A DNA stretch of 63,944 nt, counting the filler, from Fonticula-like sp. SCN 57-25 (lineage: Eukaryota), in the NCBI GenBank assembly GCA_001724245.1. It is 3 parts of 3 records of this genome, joined end to end, with 100 filler letters (N's around TTAATTAATTAA, not from the genome) between each part and the next. Parts side by side here need not be neighbours in the genome. Positions count along the whole stretch, not along the records: positions 1 to 24,260 come from MEDX01000064.1; 2 more parts are not named here. One strand, given 5' to 3'. Made by a program: the position numbers and the translations under genes. Under the pieces are notes generated by a model, which was given only the letters and a program-made list of their open reading frames with translations, made no database searches and was not told the DNA's origin. Positions 11,513 to 24,260 of this stretch are shown here, in pieces; the first letter of the stretch is position 1; every line of letters begins with the position of its first letter.

Positions 11513-13620
11513 CTATCCCCACACATCGCGCAGCACGCGCTTCTCCTTGCTCCACCTCAGCAGGGTCGCCTTGGCCTCGGCCTCGTCCCCTGCGACCCCC
11601 TGGTCCACGAGCACCTTGACAATAGCTGCGTCGATGTCGCGGACCATTGCCAACGCGTCGCCGCACATAAAGAGCCGCGCCTGCTGCTTGAACAGGCCTG
11701 CCAGGTTGGCCGCCTCCTCGCCGCTCATGACGGCGTTGACGCGCCCGCGACGAACGCACACGCCCTCCGGCGCCTCGCTATCACCATCGGTCACCTCGCG
11801 CGACGCGCAAACAATAAGCCGCGAGAGTGTTCCGTCGCGCACAAAGCCGTGCAGCTTGTCCTTGAAGAGAAGATCGACCGCCGGGTTGCGGCACCCCGCA
11901 AAGAGCCAAATTTGGCGGGAATGCGCGAGGCCGCGCTGCGCAAACGCCGCCTGGATGTGCTCCAGGAAGGAAATAAAGGGCGTGACGCCCGTTCCCGGCG
12001 CCAAAAACACGAGCGGCGTCGCCTCGCCCAGCTCGGGGAGCCCGTCGACGCTCGGCGCGTCCACCGGCACCTCGTCCGTGTCGAGGTCGGCGACGCCCGC
12101 AGGCAGCCGGAAGGCGTCGTGGCGGCGCATAAAGGCCGGAACGTGCGTCCCAATCGGCGCATCGGCAAGCAACGCCGTGCACAGACCGCGCTGGGCCTCG
12201 CCCGAAATGTCAGTATACTCTGCGACGTTGAAGGCGAGCGTCGGGTCGCGCGGGTGCGCCCGTGGCGACGACGCGAACGAGTAGTAGCGCGGCGCGAGCG
12301 GCAGGAGGACCTGTAGGAGCGCAGCGAGCGGCGGGCGACACGACGGCGCCGACCGCAAAATGTCCATCAGCGACGGCGACCGCGCGCGCAGCGCATTGTA
12401 CTCGGAGGCGCCCTTGGCGCTCGAGAGGAACAGAAGCGCGCGCCGCTCCGACGCGTCCGACGCCGCCTCGCCAAGTAACCGGAAAAACGACTTTTTCGGA
12501 AAGTGCGCAAGATCAACGCCAAAAGTGAGCGCCTCGCGAGCCGTGCACGGGAGGCGCAGATGCACTGCTGTGCTCGCCGCGGCGTCACTGCCCTGCGCGA
12601 GCTCGACGGCGCTCGAGGGGCGAACGCCCAGGTGCGCAAGCAGCGCCTCGACAACCGCCGGCTCGTTGCCGCAGTGCACGCCGAGCGCGTCGCCGGGAAG
12701 GTAAGCCTGCATCTCGGCGGGCAGCTGCACGTCCACGCGGAGCGTATTGCGCACCGCGCCCTGGGCCGTTAAACGCTCGCGGTGGACGAGCGGGACGCGG
12801 AAGACGCCCTTTTCGGCGCCGCCGCGGAAAAAGTAGCGCTCAAGGGATGTGGTACCCTCGTCCTTTTCGTCGGCAACGGCGTCAGAGATGACAAAGAGGC
12901 CCGTGGCGGGCAGCTGCGGCAGCGTCCCGGGCTCCCACTCGGCGGGCGGCGTCGGCAGGAGGTCGAGCTTTGTCAGCACCGCTGTGGTGGGCGCCGATGC
13001 GGCCGCAGCCTGCAGCGCAAGTGCTTCCCCGTTGGCTTCCTGCGCGGCGGCAGGCTGCGCTTCGCAGGCCCGCAGCTCGCCGCGGACAGCGTCCAGCGCA
13101 GGCCACAGCCCGGCGATCCACGCCTCAACGACGGCTTCGAGCCCCGTGCCGTCGTCCGCCATCGCGTGCGGGTAAAACTCGCTCACACCAACATCGCGCA
13201 GCGCCTTGAGAACGCGAAGCCCGCCGCCGCAAAAGGAGCTGTAGTTGGTGTCGCCGAGGAGGAGCGCGGCCATGCGCACATGCGAAAGGGCCGAGTCGCT
13301 GCCAAGGCGGCGCATGTGGCGAATGAAGCGGACGCCGTTCTCGGGGACTTCGCCGTCGCCCGTCGTCGAGCAGACAACCACAACATATCGACTCGTCGCA
13401 AGATTGCCCTAGAGCGACATGTGCCATTTAGACGCGACGGTCAAGAGACACACCTGCCACGTACCTTCTCATGGCGATTAAGCGTTTGGGCGCCAGATTC
13501 AATTCCGCGCGTTTTGGCTTCGTCGCATATCCGCTTCGCTATCTGCTCGGCGTTTCCCGTCTCCGAGCCGTACAGAACCAGCAGCGGCGGCCGCTCATCC
13601 TCTGCCGTCGACGTTGTCAT
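11513..13620 (-). CDS. MTRR: Methionine synthase reductase (diflavin FMN/FAD/NADPH reductase), 2 exons
   Basis: LYGSETGNA, STTGDGE, LGDTNYSSFCGGG and DDGTGLEAVVEAW (MTRR-type), PRYYSFASSP, PGTGVTPF, C-terminal DVWG. Confidence 0.8.
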
Positions 13621-13742
13621 GGCAGGCACCCTCGTGCTTAGCTTTTGTCAGCACCCGCGTCAATGCCAGTCACGTGATATAGTTTGCATATTGCATATCC
13701 ACGTGGGCTATTCTTGAGGGTCACTTTGGGTGCGCGTGCAGG

Positions 13743-15551
13743 ATGCTGCTGAGGGGCCGCGCGCGGATCTTGTCCGTGCCCTGGGCGCGGTTCTCGAGCG
13801 TCGGCCGCTCGATGCTGACGCCCATTGACGGAGATCCGCCGCCGCTTCTTGTCGAGACGCTTCCCACCGAGGACGAGGAGGCCGCATCGGTTCTCCTTCC
13901 GCTACCCAACGTGTCTGATCGCCGAGGCGATGTGCCGTACTACCCCGTGTCATCGTTCCTTGCCGGGGCGGATGCTGTGCTCCGCGGGCGCCAGACGCCG
14001 TCGGACGCGCTCCAGAGCGAGGCATGCCAGTACTATGTGTCGCTTCTCAAGCGCATGACGGCGAATGCGATCACTGTTCCTCAAGAGCGCACGCGGGTCG
14101 ATGTTGCTCTGCGAGTGCTCGGCATGCCCGATGCCTTTTCACTCCTTGTTCGCCTCGGCATCTACGAGCCGAGCTCTGTTCCCTCCCTTCACTCTGGTGA
14201 GGTGGCGTCTTCCTTCAACTCGAGCCTGATCGCCGCGAGCGATGCCATGTGTCGCGATGCGCGCGATCGCGCCGCAGAGATCCTTGGCCACCGCCTCCGC
14301 CGCGATCTCCGCCACCTCACCGTCTACACCATTGACGACGCGAGCACGCAGGAAACCGACGACGGCCTTTCCATCGAGAGGCGCGCCGACGGCTCCCTCT
14401 GGATCCACGTGCACGTGGCCGATCCCGTCGCCTATCTGTCGCCCGGCTCGCCGCTCGATCTCGAGGCGCGCCGCCGCGTGTCCACCTTTTACATGCCCGA
14501 AGGCAAGGTGACCATGTTCCCCGCGTCGCTCGCCTTTGATCTCTTTTCGATTGAGCCCAACAAGCCCGGCGGCTGCGCCGTCTTTACTGTGAGCGCCAAG
14601 CTCGGCAGCGACGGCGAGGTGCTTGACTGCGTGATTGGCCCGGCGCTCGTGGACCGCGTGGTCAAGCTCGACTATGAGCAGGCGAGCGCGCTGTTGCGCT
14701 CCGATGCTTCTGCGGCGGACGAGCGTGTGAAGGACCTTGTCGAGATGAAGCAGTTTGCGGACGCGCACCTCGAGCGGCGGCACGCACAGGGCGGCTTCCA
14801 GCTCAACCTCCCCGAGCCCATCTTTAAACGCTCCGCGGACGGGGCGTCCTTTGACATTTCGGCCGACATGGACTTTAGCTCGGAATCGCGCGCGCTCGTT
14901 TCAGAGCTCATGATCATGTCGGGGCGGCTGGCTGCCACGTGCGGCAATGCCGCTGGCGTTGCGATGCCGTACCGGACGCAGCCGCGCTCGTTCGTGCCAG
15001 AGGACATTATGAGGGGCGTGGTCGCGGCGAGCCGCGCAAAGACGCCGGGCATTGAGGAGGCGGCGCGCATCCTGCCGTTCATGCTGCCGAGCAAGACGAG
15101 CACCGTGGCGGGGTCGCACTGGGCGCTCGGCGTCAAGATGTACGCCAAGGTCACCTCGCCCATCAGACGCTACTCGGACATTCTCGCGCACTATCAGCTG
15201 TGGGCGGTGGCGAGCGGCGAAAAGGCGCCGTTTGGCGTCGAGGAAATGGCCGACATTCTCACCCCGTTGGCGATCCGCGAGCGCGTCCTCGACAGGCTGC
15301 AGGGGACGGCCGAGCGGTACTGGATCCTGAGGTTCATCGAGAGGCAGGACCCGCTCAAGCGGTACCGCTGCACGGTCATGAGCCCCGCGGACGACGCTGG
15401 TTTTGTGCAGGCGGTCATGCTCGACACGGCCATGCGGTGCAGAGTGCGCGTCAACGCGGCTGTCGCGCTCGGCGACACAATCACCGCCATCGTGAATAGA
15501 CTCAACCCGAGAAGGATGCACCTCGTCCTCACGCAGGTCGACGGCGCGTGA
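13743..15551 (+). CDS. Mitochondrial RNase II/RNB-family exoribonuclease (DSS1-like)
   Basis: Presequence-like N-terminus, RRDLR, TIDDASTQETDDGLS, IHVHVADP, HWALG..Y...TSPIRRYSD. Confidence 0.85.
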   Translation: MLLRGRARILSVPWARFSSVGRSMLTPIDGDPPPLLVETLPTEDEEAASVLLPLPNVSDRRGDVPYYPVSSFLAGADAVLRGRQTPSDALQSEACQYYVSLLKRMTANAITVPQERTRVDVALRVLGMPDAFSLLVRLGIYEPSSVPSLHSGEVASSFNSSLIAASDAMCRDARDRAAEILGHRLRRDLRHLTVYTIDDASTQETDDGLSIERRADGSLWIHVHVADPVAYLSPGSPLDLEARRRVSTFYMPEGKVTMFPASLAFDLFSIEPNKPGGCAVFTVSAKLGSDGEVLDCVIGPALVDRVVKLDYEQASALLRSDASAADERVKDLVEMKQFADAHLERRHAQGGFQLNLPEPIFKRSADGASFDISADMDFSSESRALVSELMIMSGRLAATCGNAAGVAMPYRTQPRSFVPEDIMRGVVAASRAKTPGIEEAARILPFMLPSKTSTVAGSHWALGVKMYAKVTSPIRRYSDILAHYQLWAVASGEKAPFGVEEMADILTPLAIRERVLDRLQGTAERYWILRFIERQDPLKRYRCTVMSPADDAGFVQAVMLDTAMRCRVRVNAAVALGDTITAIVNRLNPRRMHLVLTQVDGA

Positions 15552-15724: not shown

Positions 15725-17347
15725 CTAGACCGGGTTGATGTAGAGCTTGATGGCAGGAACCCAGCGGTCAATAACAGCCTGCGTCGTGCGGAGCGTAAAG
15801 CTTCCGTGGCACTTGGAAACGAGCGTGAAGACGCGCTTCTGTTCCATCTTTACTTGAACGAGGCTGAAGAGAGGATAAATGGCGATGGGCGACTGAAAGT
15901 CAGCGCATCCCTTGCGGTAAATGAAAATTTGATGGCCGTCAAAGCGAACGTCGCGCGTCGTCCAACGCTTGACGACGGAGCCGGACTGGACCTCAAAGGG
16001 CAGGCTCTTGAGCACGTCACTTTCGCCGACGGGCGAGGGCGAGATCCGGATGACGGGAGACCCGGTAGGCTGGCACTTGCTGTACACAATGAGAAGCTCG
16101 CGACCAATGGCATACTGGACGACCCGCGGCCCGAGTCCATAGTGCGAGAAAATCACGTTGAGCGAGCGGCAAACAGAGCTGGCTTCCGTAAACTTGATCA
16201 TCTCAAAGATTGCGCTTACCACCATCAGGTTCGTGTCCAAGAGCAGGCGCAAGAACTCTAGCGTGTTGTCGTCCGAAGGGCTGCCCGAGAGCACGCGCAG
16301 GCGCGCGTCTGCAACCTCGTCGTTTGGCATCAGCAACTCGGCGGCCTTGAGCTCCCCGTCCGAAATCTTGCAAGCGTCCTTGCGGCCGCGCTGACGGGGC
16401 GAAAGAGCCATGTATAGCGCGATGCGAGCAAACGGCTTTGCCACGCGCGCCCGAAGCGAGTTGGCCTCGTGCAGGACCTCCTCGGTCGGCGGAATAGCGT
16501 CGAAAATAAGGGGACGGTACTCGTCGACCGTTTCCGGCGGGGGAGGCGGGATAAGGAAGCCGGCAGGGATGTTGCCTTGAATGATAACGTGCGCCTGGTG
16601 CTTGCTGATGGAGCCATACTTTTTCATGTGGCTGTACAGATTGCGCATGGAGACCACCTTGAGAGCCAGCTTTTCAGGGGCGGCCCTGGCGGGAGAAGAG
16701 GAACGGCTAGCGATCATTGCCGTGAAGAATGTCCGAACGCGGGCGTCCTGCGCCTCGAGAAACTCGTTCAGGGGAATCATGTGCTGCTCCTTGGTGCCGA
16801 AAACGGTGTGGTTGGCGAGGTGTTGCAATACCTTGGCGCAAACAACGAGGTCATCGAGGCGATCCTTGGTGAGCGGCTGCGAGAGCGGGACACCGAGCTC
16901 GGCCGGCTTCACGATAGCCGGGCAGAAGAAACGCAGGAACAGAATGCTGAGCGTGGTCTGCGCGGCAGTCGTGTCGCCAAACGTCTTGGCAATCTCGGCG
17001 TAAAACAAGTCAAACAGATCGCGGAACTCGTCCGGGACCTGCGGGAGGGACTCGACGATAGCATCGAGCAGTACCGTGCACCATTGTACGAGCCTCTCGT
17101 GGTTCCCAGCAAGATCTGCAGGATCGCGCACGCGAATCGGGTTCATCTGCAGCCTCAGCGACTCGTCCGTCTTGAGCAGCTCGCCCAACGGCCCGGCGAA
17201 CACGCCGCGCAGGTACTCCCCCGCCACCGACATTCCATACTCGTAGACCAGCTTGGTAGCAAAGCTACTTCCTCGAAACAACGTCGTCACCTCATGCGGC
17301 GGCAGAGATGAAAACTGTGCGCCTGCCGAGACACTCATCCTCGTCAT
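15725..17347 (-). CDS. RasGAP-domain protein with C-terminal PH domain
   Basis: TTLFRG arginine finger, FLRFFCPAI, AKVLQHLAN. C-terminal KRWTTRDVRF...RWVPAI PH-like segment. Confidence 0.85.
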   Translation of the reverse strand: MTRMSVSAGAQFSSLPPHEVTTLFRGSSFATKLVYEYGMSVAGEYLRGVFAGPLGELLKTDESLRLQMNPIRVRDPADLAGNHERLVQWCTVLLDAIVESLPQVPDEFRDLFDLFYAEIAKTFGDTTAAQTTLSILFLRFFCPAIVKPAELGVPLSQPLTKDRLDDLVVCAKVLQHLANHTVFGTKEQHMIPLNEFLEAQDARVRTFFTAMIASRSSSPARAAPEKLALKVVSMRNLYSHMKKYGSISKHQAHVIIQGNIPAGFLIPPPPPETVDEYRPLIFDAIPPTEEVLHEANSLRARVAKPFARIALYMALSPRQRGRKDACKISDGELKAAELLMPNDEVADARLRVLSGSPSDDNTLEFLRLLLDTNLMVVSAIFEMIKFTEASSVCRSLNVIFSHYGLGPRVVQYAIGRELLIVYSKCQPTGSPVIRISPSPVGESDVLKSLPFEVQSGSVVKRWTTRDVRFDGHQIFIYRKGCADFQSPIAIYPLFSLVQVKMEQKRVFTLVSKCHGSFTLRTTQAVIDRWVPAIKLYINPV

Positions 17348-17855
17348 TCCAACCAGCAGAATGAAAGGGCAAGCGAAATAAGCCCTGGGGCACTGCCCTT
17401 CGTTTTCCTACGAACGGCCAAGCGACTTGCTGTCTGCTCAGGCACGCAGTTCGCTAACTCGATACAGATGGGAATTTCTTAAAATCGGCATTAATCTAAA
17501 GTCCAATTTCCTTTTTAGGGTTTAATTTAGCTAATCTCGGTCGAGTTGTACCTCAGGGGGACCGATTCGTCTATTAATGGTAACATTTTGATCATTCATC
17601 GGAAGCAAGCGAAGCATGGCAGATTGAGTTACGATTGAGATCCGCTCGAGTGGAAGCGCGCTCCGCTCCGACCAATCGTGTAGCAGGTGCGACTCTGCCC
17701 CTGAGGCATACCAGTAAATCAAATGCCTTCCGATCCCGTGTCCGACGGAACTATTACAGTGATAGTTGGATGATATTGATAATACATAAATGTGAATGTA
17801 CAAAAGTAGACACGAATGAGTGGCAAAAAAAAACGCTTGGCGCCATGTGAAGATT

Positions 17856-20800
17856 CTATTGGCTGGACGACGTGATATTGGCGTCCAGCTTTGCCGCGGA
17901 TATTATTGCTGTGCAGCGCTTGCATGCCTTGCTTGTCTTTGGGTCAATGCCGATAATGTCGATGCCTTCGAGGCAGCTGGCGCAGAAGACGCCGCCGCAC
18001 GTGCGGCACGAAGGGCGGCGGCGCTCGAGCACGCTAAACTTGATGGCGCACTCCATGCATGCGTCGTGGTCGCGCACGCGGTGGCGGTCGTCGGCCGTTG
18101 GGAGCGACCACGAGTACATCTTGCCGTTGGCGTCGCCAATGTAGATGCGGCCGTGGGCGTTCACGGGCAGCAGCGCCGTCACCGCGTGGCCGCCCAGCGG
18201 GGCCTCGGCGCCGGGGCGCGCCTGGTAAGAGGAAGAGGCGAGCGGCGGCAGCGACGAGACGAGCAGCGGGTAGTCGCGGAAGTTGGGGTGGCCACCGCCG
18301 GGGGTAAGCGTGCGCCGCGCCTCGAGAGCAGCGCGGCCGGCGTGCCAGACAAGGCCCCAGATGATGACGTGGCCGCTGCTGTGGCCCGTGACGAACGCGT
18401 CGGGGCCCGCGGGCTGCGCGGTCGTGGGTTCAATGATGCCGACGCACGTAATGCCGTCACCAATGTCCACAGAGAGGCTGCTGAACGGCGTGCGGCCCGC
18501 GGGGATCGTGTGGGCGATGCGCTTGGCCAGCGGCTCATTCGCGTTGCCGGTCCACACGCGAAGCATCGTCGGCGTGCATGTGGCGATATAGCCCGTCGCA
18601 TCCGACATGGCGGCGGCCACGATCGGTGCATCGTGGTCGCCCAGGGTGCGCACGTACGAGCAGCGGTCCAGATCCCAGATGACGCACGTTTGGTCCGTGC
18701 TGCCCGAAAGCAGCGTCGTGCGCGAGGGGTTTGTCGCGAGACAGGTGATGGCCCCAGTGTGCGCCGAAAGCGTCGCCGACAAAAACAGTGCAGTGTTGCC
18801 CACGACAACGTCGCTCGACATGTGCGGGTTGGCGTGCATGATGCGCCACACGCGCACAGTCGCGTCCTCGCCGCCAGAGGCAAACCGCATGTGCGGACCG
18901 CCCAGGCCGATCACAGCCGTGACCTGCCCCACATGCGCGCCGTCCAGCACGTCGATGCACTCTGTGTCGCCAATGAGCACAACGGACTCGTCGCCGGCGA
19001 TGCTGGCGTGAGCACCACCTTCGGAAGCAATGTTGCTCATCGAAGCCGAGTTGGCGCTGCTAGAGGACGCCAGCTCGGTGCGGCGAGGCGCGTAAAGGCG
19101 CAGCGACTGGTCCACGGCGCCCCACTCGAGGAACATCTTGCCAGAGTCGGGCAAGAGGGCCTGGCAGCGAGCAAGCGGCACCGGCGTCTGGGTCGGCGTC
19201 ACAAAGCCAATAACGCCAACAAGGTCGTCCCGCTGCGTCGTGTGGGACTCGAACGTGATCGAGCCGACGGCGCGCAGGGAGCCCTCGCGAGCCTCGCGGC
19301 CAGAACGTCCCTTTGCAATCTGCGCCAGCGGCCAGACGGACCGCACTAGAAGCGACGGCGAGTGCGCGAGGCTAATGATGGGCGCGCGCGGGTCGTACTT
19401 GCGGTTGGCATTGCGGGACGGGTGCGGCTCCTTGAACAGCTGAGCGGGCGTCTGGCCAAAGTGCGTCACAATGCCGAGCGTGGTGGCGCGCTGAACTGGG
19501 TCCGTGACGCTGTCCAGGTCCACATTGTCGTACGAGAGCGGGTGGAACAGGTTGACCGCCTCGATGGCGGCTTGGCCGCGCTGCTGGTAGCCAAAGATCA
19601 GGTCGATCCACTTGTGCAGGTTGTCGCTCACATAGTCGCATTCGAGGGCCGCACGCATCTGCGAGATAAACAGCTCCGGGCTACCGTGCGCCCACGGCGG
19701 CAGCACAACATCGTCCACGCGGCGCATTGACTCGTGGCGCAGGCCGAGGTCAAACCGGTTAGAGTTCACCAAAAACTCGGGCATGTAGTAAAACTCGGGG
19801 GTAAGCTCTTTGACATCGGCCGTGGTGAGCTCCGATGACGACCGCCACGCGTCGGCGATCGAGTGGAAGAGGCGGTCGGGGCGGTCAAAGTCGCCCTGCA
19901 GCTTGAGGAACTCGTGCGTGAACGGCTCCAGGCGCATCAGGTAGGTGCACACAGCCATCGCCGACGAGTAGTGGGTGCCGTAATGGAAGCGCTCGGCCGA
20001 GTCCTCCAGCGTCTCGAACCGCTCAACAAACTCGGCGAGGCGCGCGGGCGTCTGGGCGCCCATCGGAGCCGCCAGGTTGCGGAACGAGTTGGGGTTGGTC
20101 AGGTCGAGTTCCTCGCTCGTGTAGTCCTTGAGCACCCACGGGAACACTGGGTACTGCGTCAGGTCGTTGAACGAGCGGCCGGCGAGCGCGTTGAGCGCCA
20201 TGAGGTACTGCAGGTTGCTCAGCTGGCGAGCCTGCCAGCGCTGGAGAAGCATCTGGCGCGCCTGCTGATTCGGCCCCATGCGGCGAAGCATGTCGAGACC
20301 CGAGCCGGCTGCGCGACCAATCTTGGCTTCCAGGATTTTGAGGGCGCGCGTGCAGTCCTGCACCGTTCCGCACAGCGCAATCAACACGGTGCGGCCGTTG
20401 GCAAGGAACAGCTCGAGGCCGACAGAACGCAGCATGTAGCGACGACGCTGCACGCGACGCACGGAAGAGTACAAAATGGTCTGGATTTGGCGCCGCTGTT
20501 CTCTGGGAAGCTGCTCTTCGTCCACAGTCTCGGACACTGACGACGACGCGTACTCGCGCTGCTCGCGCGGCGCAAAGGAGAGCGGCACAATTGTCCGGCT
20601 CACATCGTCCAGCACAAAATAATCATCCATGACCTGGAGATACTTTTTGTACATTAAAAAGACGCCCTCGCGCACGTCCAGCCCAACAATGCGCGCGCAG
20701 TTGCAGAACAGGTCCGGCTTGTCGCCCATGCTGGTCTCGATCACGGTGGCAGGCACCGCGCCAGTATTGGGACTGGCTGTCGCAGTCGGCGGAGGCTGTG

Positions 20801-23800
20801 TGTGTGCCGCAGTAGGCGACTGCGGCGCCGAGATGGGCGTCTCCGACACAGGGAAAGGAGCCATGGTCACCGACGCATTAGAACTGCGGCGATCCTTTCG
20901 CTGCGTAATCGACGACGTGCGACGCTCCTTCTGATCGGGCAAAATAAGGGAATCCGTGGTTTCGCTCGCGCGGCTCGGGGTGAGGATGTCAATGCTGGCA
21001 TCGGCAAGCAGGACATTGCTGTCCTCGGGGTCCACCGGCGGGACTTCCTCCTCGGATTCGCTCTCGCTCGACTCGATGTCGCTTGTCGCCGCAGAAATAT
21101 CCTCGACAACAGAGTTGGGGCGCAGCGGTGTCGACAGCGCGCCGCCTTCCAAAAGATTACCCAGCGACAAGCGGAAGAGCTGCGGGTTGCGGGCGAACGC
21201 AGCCGCGTGATCGCGCGCTGGCGTGCGCGTGATCACCGGAATCGACGGCGTCAACGCATCCGAAGAGGTCTCGACGTGCAACTGCGGAAGCGAATCTAGC
21301 GTGGATACCGACGACGTGCGCTCCAGCATCGGCGGGAGATTCAACGAGAGAGCTAGCGCGGGCGGAACCGGCGGTTTCTCTTCGATCCCAGTGCTGCTTT
21401 CAATGGCATCCGTGCTGGACTCGCCCGTCGCGAGCGCGTCAGCCGAAGAGGGCGTCTCCGGCTCGTCCTGAACCTGCTCGGCGGCATCGGCCTCCTCCGT
21501 CACAACCTGCTCGACTTCGGGTTGAGCTTCGGGCGATGGCGTCGAGCGCGCTTCGATGATGATGCGCTGCAACTCGTTCTGCTTGTAGTAACGCGGAGGG
21601 AACGGGGCAGGCGGTTGCAGCCCACGCGACAGATACGCAAACTCGTACGAGAAAAAGCTCTGCGGGATTCGATTGCGATCGCCGCCGCCGCCAATGACAT
21701 CGTCATAGTCTTGGCCACTCGTGTTGGTCAGGTTTGCTGAATCCGCGTCCACATAAGGATACCTCAGGTAAAACTCGGTGTCTTCCACGAGGCGGCGACG
21801 CAGGCGATCGACGCCCTCGCGGTTGTCAAGCATCCATCTGCGCATATGCCGCGGCACCGGCGCAGCGGCCACGCTACGCTCACTCACGAGGTGATCGTTC
21901 AGTACGCGCCACCGCTTCTCAGCATCGGCAATGTGGAGATTTGCAAGGCGCGCGCGCCGCCGGCGAGACGCCAGAACCGAGTCGGTGATGTAAAAGGGAA
22001 GCGCGCGGAGGCCGCCGCGGGTTCGCTCGTCGTCGGTGCTGTTTGCGAGCATCGCGACTGCGCGAAGGATGACTGCGCGGCGGCGGGGCCGCTCGGTGTC
22101 CGTGTGCTGCCTCGACTCGGCGGCGGCCGCCGCGGTGTCGTCAGCGGCACGCAGCAGGACCTCGCTCATGAGAACGTCGACCTCGGCCCGACGAGCAGAA
22201 AACAAGGCAGTGATACTAGCTGCATCGGCACGGTTCGTCGCAATCGTCATCCGAATCGCCTCCAGCAGAAGCGCCTCATTGGTGGACGCGCCTGACGTCG
22301 CTTGCGAGCTGTTCGACTGGGCCGAGCGCCGCGCTTGGATGCGGAAGAGCGACTCGATCTCCGTCTTGCGATTCTCAAAGACAATGACGAGAAGCGAAGT
22401 GGCGTTCTCGGACGGCTTTGGACTGGTCGTCGTCTGCTTAAAGATAAAGTACAGCAGTGTCTTGAGGAAGCCAACGTCGTTATTGAGCGGATGCAAAAGT
22501 GCGCACAAAAACGACGACGTCTGCAGGGAAGCAAAGAGTTCATCCGCAGCCTCGGGAGAGCTACCGGGTCCCATCGCACGCGCCAAAAGCCACAGAACGA
22601 GGCGGTTAAACTCGGCGACCAAGGCCTTTAACGACGGGTCCACCGTGGGCGCCGAGCGGAAAATGCGCATCAGGGTGGATGTGGTACTGCTCTTGGCCGA
22701 AGGGTCGGATCCAACGCGGGAAACGAGCTCGGCGAGCAGCGTGGCTACCAACAACCCGCCATTCTCATACTGCTCAGTGGCAAAGACGCGCTCCACCACG
22801 AAATGGGCATACGAGACAATGTGCTTGAGCAGAGGGCGGTTGTCGGGCGATACGCGGCCGGTCTGAATGCCAACGCGCATGGCGCAGGTGAGCGCGTCGA
22901 GGATCATTATCTGCAGAGAGCGGTCGGCAAACGATGCGGAGCAGTCCAGCAAGACGGTCAGGGCGCTTAGAGGACGATGCGGCGAAACGATCGAGTCGGA
23001 AGCAATGTGCATCAAGAGGTTGAGCGCAGTGGAAAAGAGCGGCGACACGGCGACGGTGCGCGCGGGAAGTTCAGAGAGCGAATGAACGGCAGGCGGCGAG
23101 CTACCCGAAAAGAGCGGCGGAATCGAGTACGGCGAGTACGAATCCGCAAGGTTCGTCACCGACGGAACCGACAGCAGGGACGACGAAAGCTGTGAGAACT
23201 CGGTCGAGGAAGTACTGCCACCCGGCGGCACGTTCGCAAACTGCAACCAAGCGCGATTGCATGAAGTCGACGACTCGGCAAAGAAGAGGGGCGCCTGCGG
23301 CGCCTGCAAGGAGAGCAGAGGCGCCAGCGCAGTCATCAACTCGTCCAAAAGAGCACCCTCGTGCCGGTACAAGAAATGATTCTTAAACTCTTCGACATGC
23401 ACCATCAAGTGAAGCAAAAAGTCGAGAACGCCGCCGAGCAAGCGAACACCGTCGGCAATCTCAAACTCTTCAAGCTGGTACGCGCGCGCCTCCTGCACGG
23501 ACGGATAATCTGTTGCGCTTATAAAGAGCCCTTCAGGCTGGGCCACTTGAGCAGCCTCCTGAATGGTCTGCGGGCCAAACACAGTCGAAGAAGGGATCAC
23601 GCGCTTAACACCGACAATCGTCTGGACACCCATCTGCACCATGCGGATGATGACAGAGAGCACCTCGGGCACTGCAACACCCTGCAGGGGGCGCGCAAGG
23701 AAGCAGGCCAGCAGCTGCGCGCGCTCCACCGGAAGCTGTGGAGGCACATTTGCAATATTGACGCCTAGCAAAAGAGCAAAGAGCGACGGGTACAGCTGAG

Positions 23801-24260
23801 CCAGGTGCCAGCGCGGCGCCAGGTAGCGGCGCATGGTTGGGATCCCTGCTTTGAGCCGCGGAATGGAAATATCCGGGGTCAGGAAGCAGAGCTGCGCAAT
23901 CAGGCGGGAGCCGAGCACCACGGTGCGGGAATCGAGTCGGTGGCTCAGGAGCATCAACGGCCAAAGCATGACTTCGGTGACAACCGCCGACGAGAGGGTC
24001 TGCAAGCGGATCGCCAACGAGATGCGGCGGTCGGCCACCTTGCTGTCGGTGAGGATGGATAGGAGCGTCTCCAGCACCCAGTTGCGCAGGCGCACCTGGC
24101 GCATCGTCGACAGGAATGTTGCGCCCAACACATCGCGGAACACACGGCGCGGGAGCAGCGCGATCAACGTCTCGCCTTCGGCAAGCGCCAGCGAGAGGCG
24201 CCGAGCCGTGTTGCTATCGGCCCCGCCTGCTGTGGTGACCGACGGCAGCGACAAGGAGTG
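17856..24260 (-). CDS. PH-BEACH-WD40-FYVE protein (WDFY3/ALFY/Bph1-like), 5'-truncated at gap
   Basis: ORF of more than 2100 aa with [60 protein letters not shown], WD repeats and terminal CxxC FYVE-like finger. Confidence 0.93.
   Translation of the reverse strand, partial: [2134 protein letters not shown]

Follow-up and report, generated by a model that had tools for sequence, protein, structure and literature searches.

A conserved, sequence-predicted circular permutation of the RasGAP domain, opened at the catalytic finger loop

For decades, work on the RasGAP fold, as represented by NF1 and p120GAP, has dealt with a single chain order. A gene of Fonticula-like sp. SCN 57-25, located in a window of 63,944 nucleotides (the whole stretch of DNA analysed), raises the question of whether this order has been changed in nature. 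A sequence-only reading had placed the arginine finger at about residue 25, directly at the start of the protein, and had located a segment resembling the missing N-terminal helices behind the catalytic core, which led to the proposal of a natural circular permutation. As judged at the sequence level from the inverted order of profile matches, the lack of an upstream copy and the presence of independent genes of the same order, the locus indeed encodes a RasGAP domain in genuinely permuted order, which is conserved in other genes and has its cut at the catalytic finger loop.

The gene consists of a single unbroken frame on the minus strand, which extends from 17407 to the stop codon at 15725 and contains its first ATG at 17347 (Table 1); Met4 is an alternative start of the predicted protein of 540 amino acids. 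Pfam recognizes RasGAP (PF00616) as the sole domain, with 80.7 bits compared to a curated cut-off of 28.3, and the best sequence match of the core is the GAP-related domain (GRD) of NF1 (E 1e-20). The alignments to NF1 and p120GAP start at residues 18-20 and end at about residue 215, and the finger arginine is identified as R25, as initially proposed. Short N-termini are also present in two orthologues of the same subtype (type B, see below), P0013 and L033, which start 35 and 10 residues ahead of the finger motif, respectively. Behind the core, the full-domain profile extends into a first helix of the C-terminal extra region, while a profile of this region alone gave no reportable match in any of five permuted proteins. 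The C-terminal PH domain, which had been read as directly following the displaced helices, is indeed found at this place, with a weak Pfam match (PH_6, E 0.14) and a structural match to PH folds (TM 0.64-0.72). Pairwise comparison with the PH domain of the L026 orthologue was not significant, 52 of 1000 shuffles scoring as high in the best case.

Table 1. Predicted features of the permuted RasGAP gene and its upstream flank, in positions of the window.
Feature	Position	Strand	Basis
Single-exon CDS, 540 aa, type B circularly permuted RasGAP (predicted) with C-terminal PH domain	15725..17347	-	ORF, Pfam
Leader, residues 1-19, in place of the usual N-terminal helices; low model confidence	17291..17347	-	
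R25, arginine finger; equivalent to NF1 R1276 and p120GAP R789	codon 17275-17273	-	Alignment
RasGAP catalytic core, residues 20-214, finger loop to end of GAPc	16706..17290	-	Pfam, model superposition
First C-terminal extra-domain helix, residues 215-250	16598..16705	-	Full-domain profile to residue 244; model helix 231-243
Linker, residues 251-358; Pro-rich loop followed by predicted helices, with partial conservation in type B	16274..16597	-	
Displaced N-terminal helices, residues 359-425, about NF1 1206-1266	16073..16273	-	Profile; four model helices
Residues 401-419, equivalent to NF1 1248-1266 (alpha1c, start of minimal catalytic domain)	16091..16147	-	Count on NF1 alignment
Divergent PH domain, residues 434-539	15731..16048	-	Pfam (weak), structure match
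Intergenic region, 508 bp, between RasGAP ATG and stop of upstream gene	17348..17855	.	

The inverted order is seen most directly with a profile of the 78 residues ahead of the finger motif, taken from 120 other RasGAPs that were chosen blind to the tail of the query. This profile matches residues 353-418 with 38.4 bits, compared to 7.8 bits for the best of 1000 shuffles and no match for the reversed sequence. After removal of four rows that contain no helices upstream of the finger motif, the rebuilt profile (116 rows) matches residues 354-418 with 38.3 bits, compared to 4.9 bits for the best of 1000 shuffles. The segment proposed at about 16258-16090 in the sequence-only reading is recovered in these matches, with its start at 16258 (residue 364). 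A full-domain profile yields the same inversion within one model, since its positions 81-306 align to residues 19-244 and its positions 7-76 to residues 349-418. Moreover, the query tail gave a second pairwise match in 29 of 159 proteins, which was located upstream of the target's finger motif in all 29 cases. Searches against Pfam and PDB sequences recovered the RasGAP core, while the tail alone matched no RasGAP there; detecting the moved helices therefore requires a purpose-built profile. No second copy was found when the tail was used for a single-sequence search of its own genome. Instead of the canonical order with the N-terminal GAPex helices and alpha1c ahead of the finger, these helices trail the core by about 140 residues, and both parts are homologous to one domain in reversed order on one chain, which is what defines a circular permutant. 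These matches confirm the prediction of a RasGAP gene whose N-terminal helices are encoded behind the catalytic core and whose chain is cut just before the catalytic arginine.

The position of the cut can be derived from a conserved Glu of the last N-terminal helix. In 217 of the 235 domains of normal order, this residue precedes the finger Arg by 12 positions; it corresponds to E417 of the 540-aa protein and to NF1 E1264, as counted on the NF1 alignment. The minimal catalytic domain of NF1 (GAPc) is given as residues 1248-1477 in the accessible text of PMC11751910, and the arginine finger is assigned to loop L1c in that of PMC7692384. Because the NF1 equivalents of residues 401-419 start exactly at the first residue of GAPc and the finger resides in L1c, the new chain ends fall within the finger loop. 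The alignment shows a moved block that comprises the N-terminal GAPex helices together with alpha1c of the catalytic domain, which refines the original proposal: the permutation was upheld, but the block also takes in alpha1c, and a long linker is a feature of type B only. According to the accessible part of PMC7437355, GAPex is assembled from both flanks of GAPc; the old chain ends should therefore be near each other, which makes their joining plausible. Judging from these genes, the fold would tolerate an opening at most 12 residues before the catalytic Arg, with a portion of GAPc then contributed by the opposite end of the polypeptide.

The same order was found in other microbial eukaryotes, as had been suggested to be looked for, in a survey of the best 150 of 2820 HMMER matches and 80 of 182 metagenome loci. 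Among the matches listed, the 159 proteins comprise 118 of normal order, 18 with a core only, 12 tandem proteins of the order N-core-N-core, five with the core followed by the helices (two of which are the query itself) and six others. The 80 loci include five of the core-then-helices order, 68 of normal order and seven with a core only. The genome of the query contains nine RasGAP-domain loci, two of which are permuted. In total, the full permuted order occurs in at least eight distinct genes, which fall into two clades. Type B consists of the query gene and its metagenomic orthologues, namely the gene of P0013 (L026/L027) and the fragment P0147. L026 carries core and moved helices on one contig, and the helices are encoded in the next exon of the P0013 gene; L033 shares the short type B N-terminus, and its contig ends within the linker. 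Type A is represented by G000:C17, P0042 from Pigoraptor chileana, P0120, L036 and L059/L061, and shows a layout of two PH domains, a low-complexity linker, the core, the helices and up to four further PH domains, with P0120 as a variant containing one PH domain before and two after. In P0042, a short link joins the last extra helix to the moved block, whereas linkers of more than 100 residues are confined to type B. This protein is part of a EukProt set which we take to be transcript-derived, and contains low-complexity sequence and no helices ahead of its finger. The helix blocks of P0042, P0120 and P0147 score at 29-50 bits, compared to 2.5 bits or less for 500 shuffles each. The second permuted gene of the host genome (G000:C17, L025:2110-6911 on the minus strand) shows the same layout as P0042, with PH-PH, low-complexity linker, core, helices and four PH domains, and its moved helices are interrupted by an intron. 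A search with the helix piece of this paralogue against the PDB retrieved designed armadillo repeats and ZER-1 only, which we take as helical-repeat likeness. Word-index protein searches with the query protein and with a three-row type B alignment gave no further permuted protein, and those with the Pigoraptor domain gave P0120 only, with no new core-then-helices case among 126 further proteins.

In a 73-row tree, type A (seven rows, two of which are fragments without the tail) and type B (three rows) are supported by 99/92 and 100/100, respectively, and a long branch leads to type B. Seven long or gappy rows, including P0147, and the odd-numbered unnamed normal rows were left out of this tree; in a quick tree of 104 rows, type A required two changes. 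Forcing both types together was not rejected (p-AU 0.219), so the data allow for one or two origins of the permutation. The EF-1alpha of the host genome carries the insertion characteristic of opisthokonts. With the type A clade joining this host and the filasterean Pigoraptor, the permuted order is old, as far as the sequence trees tell.

We consider it probable that the locus is an intact circularly permuted RasGAP gene whose product refolds into an active, R25-dependent GAP held at the membrane by its PH domain, and that this arrangement is old and arose by tandem duplication. The former C-terminus of the GAP domain would be joined via the linker to the former N-terminus, with the chain opened between alpha1c and the arginine finger, and the moved helices would fold back onto the core to rebuild the normal GAP shape. 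From the conserved residues and from what is known of the family, the protein should then bind a GTP-loaded Ras-family GTPase, insert R25 and accelerate hydrolysis, while the PH domain would hold it at the membrane. Ras-, Rap- and Ral-like GTPases, so named from their motifs, are encoded by the same genome. The Ral-like GTPase (L109 and L123, G000:C131) occurs there in addition to a number of Ras-like genes and a single Rap-like one. An unlikely elaboration is that the protein represents a naturally switchable RasGAP, in which a PH-linked arm of alpha1c and GAPex docks in cis or on a second molecule and thereby turns on the activity. The catalytic Arg would in this case sit on a free N-terminal or low-complexity tether, and attachment of the PH domains to the membrane, or else the linker helices of type B, would govern docking; such a design would predate the split between this lineage and filastereans and may have evolved twice at one cut site. 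A role of the linker, initially proposed to be regulatory, is possible: its residues 289-353 align to P0013 at a level reached by none of 2000 shuffles, while the comparisons with P0147 and L033 were not significant (53 and 430 of 2000 shuffles as high, respectively).

The catalytic competence assumed in the permuted-GAP reading is consistent with the retained residues, which include the finger R25, R139 of the FLR motif, K32, K172, Q175, N179, K186 and E187. Equivalents of NF1 R1276, K1283, R1391, K1423 and K1436, whose roles are described in section 8 of PMC7437355, are all present. The finger Arg occurs in all ten permuted rows covering the site, and the equivalents of K172, Q175, K186 and E187 occur in 11 of 11. 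These counts speak against the unlikely alternative that type B, although truly permuted, has weak or no GAP activity or has switched to another substrate, acting as a Ras-GTP-binding scaffold or as a Rap- or Ral-directed GAP. Such a change would be in line with the loss of a near-invariant Arg (NF1 1416 by count, 98% of 272 normal-order domains), which is replaced by D165 in the query, is absent from all four type B rows and is present in all seven type A rows. It would also fit the loss in type B of an Asn at the fourth position behind K172, which 86% of the normal-order domains contain, the long branch leading to type B, the untethering of the finger loop from alpha1c and the absence of a C2 domain; p120GAP depends on such a domain to be fully active, as stated in the accessible part of 10.1101/2024.08.29.609784. 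However, the lost Arg, located seven residues before K1423, is a conserved column rather than a textbook catalytic residue and lies outside the five NF1-KRAS salt bridges listed in section 8 of PMC7437355. The replacement of NF1 K1419 by V168 affects a column in which normal-order domains vary among themselves (T 31%, V 27%, I 24%).

Structure models bear on the question of whether the moved helices reach their own core. The core, which AlphaFold models with confidence, superposes on NF1 1269-1464 (6v65_B) with a Z score of 26.1 and an rmsd of 1.8 A over 194 residues and shows the all-helical GAP core fold; on p120GAP (1wer, 1wq1, 9bz4), it superposes from residue 779-787 with a Z score of 23. 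The proposed superposition on p120GAP thus succeeded for the core, while the moved helices stayed outside the alignment, as the structural aligners are bound to sequence order. A model of residues 12-428 reached a pTM of 0.73, with pLDDT values of at least 70 in 278 of 417 residues, 80-91 in the four moved helices and 38-59 in the linker; its alignment contained ten tandem proteins among 37 rows and a few misplaced short exon rows. The full-length model was poorer (pTM 0.50, tail pLDDT 58-72) and wrongly showed the PH region as helices, since the PH columns of its alignment had picked up the second cores of tandem rows. Since the core makes up about half of the chain, the pTM of the shorter model implies a defined position of the helices with respect to it, which suggests that they dock back on their own core, although the docked model may reflect AlphaFold's knowledge of solved RasGAPs. 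It appears very unlikely that the moved helices instead pair with another molecule, giving a swapped dimer or chain, or constitute a module of their own beside a core working in truncated form. The type B linker of more than 100 residues would be long enough for such pairing, and docking in cis was not directly observed in the superpositions, but the short link of type A (P0042) is as expected for folding in cis, the value of 0.73 was obtained for a monomer, and the helix block keeps the family pattern in all eight genes.

The permuted-GAP reading presupposes an intact gene. The earlier statement that the roughly 500 bp upstream leave no coding room was borne out: the intergenic region borders on a gene ending at 17856, none of three frames of 17271-17900 matched the helix profile (best -2.3 bits), and the same stretch contained no branch-point-plus-AG pattern of this genome's intron type. 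A copy of the moved helices at the original place is likewise missing in P0042, P0120 and P0013; for the query, this applies at the DNA level. The genome assembly is of metagenome type (9.5 Mb, 749 contigs) and stems from a eukaryote with introns; it is incomplete, and neither chitin synthase nor thymidylate synthase was matched in it. Short contigs from four independent runs cover the gene; none of them bridges core and tail, and none offers a credible contradictory junction. A single joint, one side of which measures 21 bases, was set aside as foreign. Another strain shows seven coding differences, six synonymous and one Thr to Ser exchange, and no coding indel was listed; its upstream region carries deletions of 11, 12 and 1 nt, each from one contig at a depth of 4-6. 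An artefact, either by a misjoined contig or by an overlooked first exon of a normal gene, is largely refuted and hardly credible any more, even though the assembly is fragmented, the core-to-tail span is absent from independent contigs and the gene is known here from DNA rather than from a transcript, because one frame runs unbroken through both junctions, seven other genes from separate assemblies plus the EukProt protein show the same order, the upstream DNA gives no helix match and bears frame-breaking deletions in another strain, and the four runs agree in their tiling. The neighbouring genes in the window code for a diflavin reductase (flavodoxin/FAD/NAD; 11513-13408, minus strand), a convergent RNB-domain exoribonuclease (13683-15551, plus strand) and, upstream, a BEACH-WD40-FYVE protein (17856-24260, minus strand); no link of these genes to RasGAP was seen. 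Only positions 1-24260 of the window map to contig C64 of the assembly, beyond which a run of N begins.

If the permuted order of this intact gene is taken as given, its origin would be explained by a tandem duplication, after which the outermost portions of the doubled domain were lost; this would have happened once or twice. Permutation by duplication predicts tandem intermediates, as laid out in the accessible part of PMC3320104 for saposin/swaposin and DNA methyltransferases. The 12 tandem double-RasGAP proteins among the 159, some of them from Diphylleia rotans, fit such an origin, although no tandem RasGAP is established as a direct ancestor. Type B adjoins the first domains of the Diphylleia tandem proteins without firm support (94/83), and in the nearest ones, P0015 and P0025, it is the first helix block rather than the second that the query tail matches; these two are therefore not established as intermediates. 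Together with P0172, these are three tandem double-RasGAP proteins of D. rotans with a fast-evolving second domain.

A comparison with known RasGAPs places the core closest to the NF1 GRD (6v65, 6ob2, 1nf1), which is its best match in both sequence and structure and shares with it the finger, the FLR Arg and the equivalents of K1283, K1423 and K1436. In contrast to NF1, the block of about 1206-1266 lies behind the core, Arg 1416 and Lys 1419 are not kept, and the protein is much smaller (540 compared to 2818 aa). In neurofibromin and MNF, the GAP domain is followed by a CRAL-TRIO plus PH-like module (PMC4374526); no CRAL-TRIO/Sec14 domain was found by Pfam in the 540-aa protein, and the NF1 rows form a separate clade in the 73-row tree. 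Compared to p120GAP/RASA1 (GAP-334), the parts given as GAPex (714-763) and the start of GAPc (764 on) in the accessible text of 10.1101/2024.08.29.609784 are moved behind the core, and SH2, SH3 and C2 domains are missing. With the GAP1 family, the top match of a feature search (score 0.90), the query shares a RasGAP domain followed by a PH domain. The members of this family (RASA2/3/4, RASAL1) are arranged as C2-C2-RasGAP-PH-BTK; unlike them, the query is permuted and contains no C2 or BTK domain according to Pfam, and normal-order proteins of the C2 type are found elsewhere in the tree. A C2 domain directly before the GAP domain, as in GAP1, p120GAP and SynGAP, does not occur here, as 19 residues precede the core. 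Plexins also build a RasGAP fold from separated segments (3hm6, 4m8n; Z 13-15). Their segments retain the usual order around an inserted Rho-binding domain, whereas the query shows the reversed order, with its break in the finger loop.

No earlier description of a circularly permuted RasGAP was found in the literature searched, which was covered at the level of listings and abstracts, so an earlier mention may exist. The string "permut" is absent from the main texts of PMC3141262, PMC4374526 and PMC12871552, and the accessible part of PMC4432964 treats permutations as false positives and does not name RasGAP. As the moved block lies mostly outside the Pfam model, permuted proteins are annotated as ordinary RasGAPs. 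The permuted genes would make the contribution of alpha1c and GAPex to the placement of the finger testable and may provide a blueprint from nature for RasGAP tools of split or switchable design, and their occurrence in a filasterean would point to an unrecognised branch of Ras regulation among the relatives of animals.

Some further proteins of unusual architecture were observed in the survey. An IQGAP-like protein encoded by the same genome (L009 on G000:C39, plus strand) has a long N-terminal part that, by eye, resembles helical repeats rather than a calponin-homology domain. Six proteins (P0011, P0012, P0016, P0023, P0029 and P0030) appear receptor-like, in that a single hydrophobic stretch, which probably spans the membrane, immediately precedes two RasGAP domains in tandem, and the four that were scanned (P0011, P0012, P0023 and P0030) carry bacterial-type Ig/cadherin-like repeats in front. 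These receptor-like tandem RasGAPs of metagenomic eukaryotes show a plexin-like design, and their first and second domains form separate clades.
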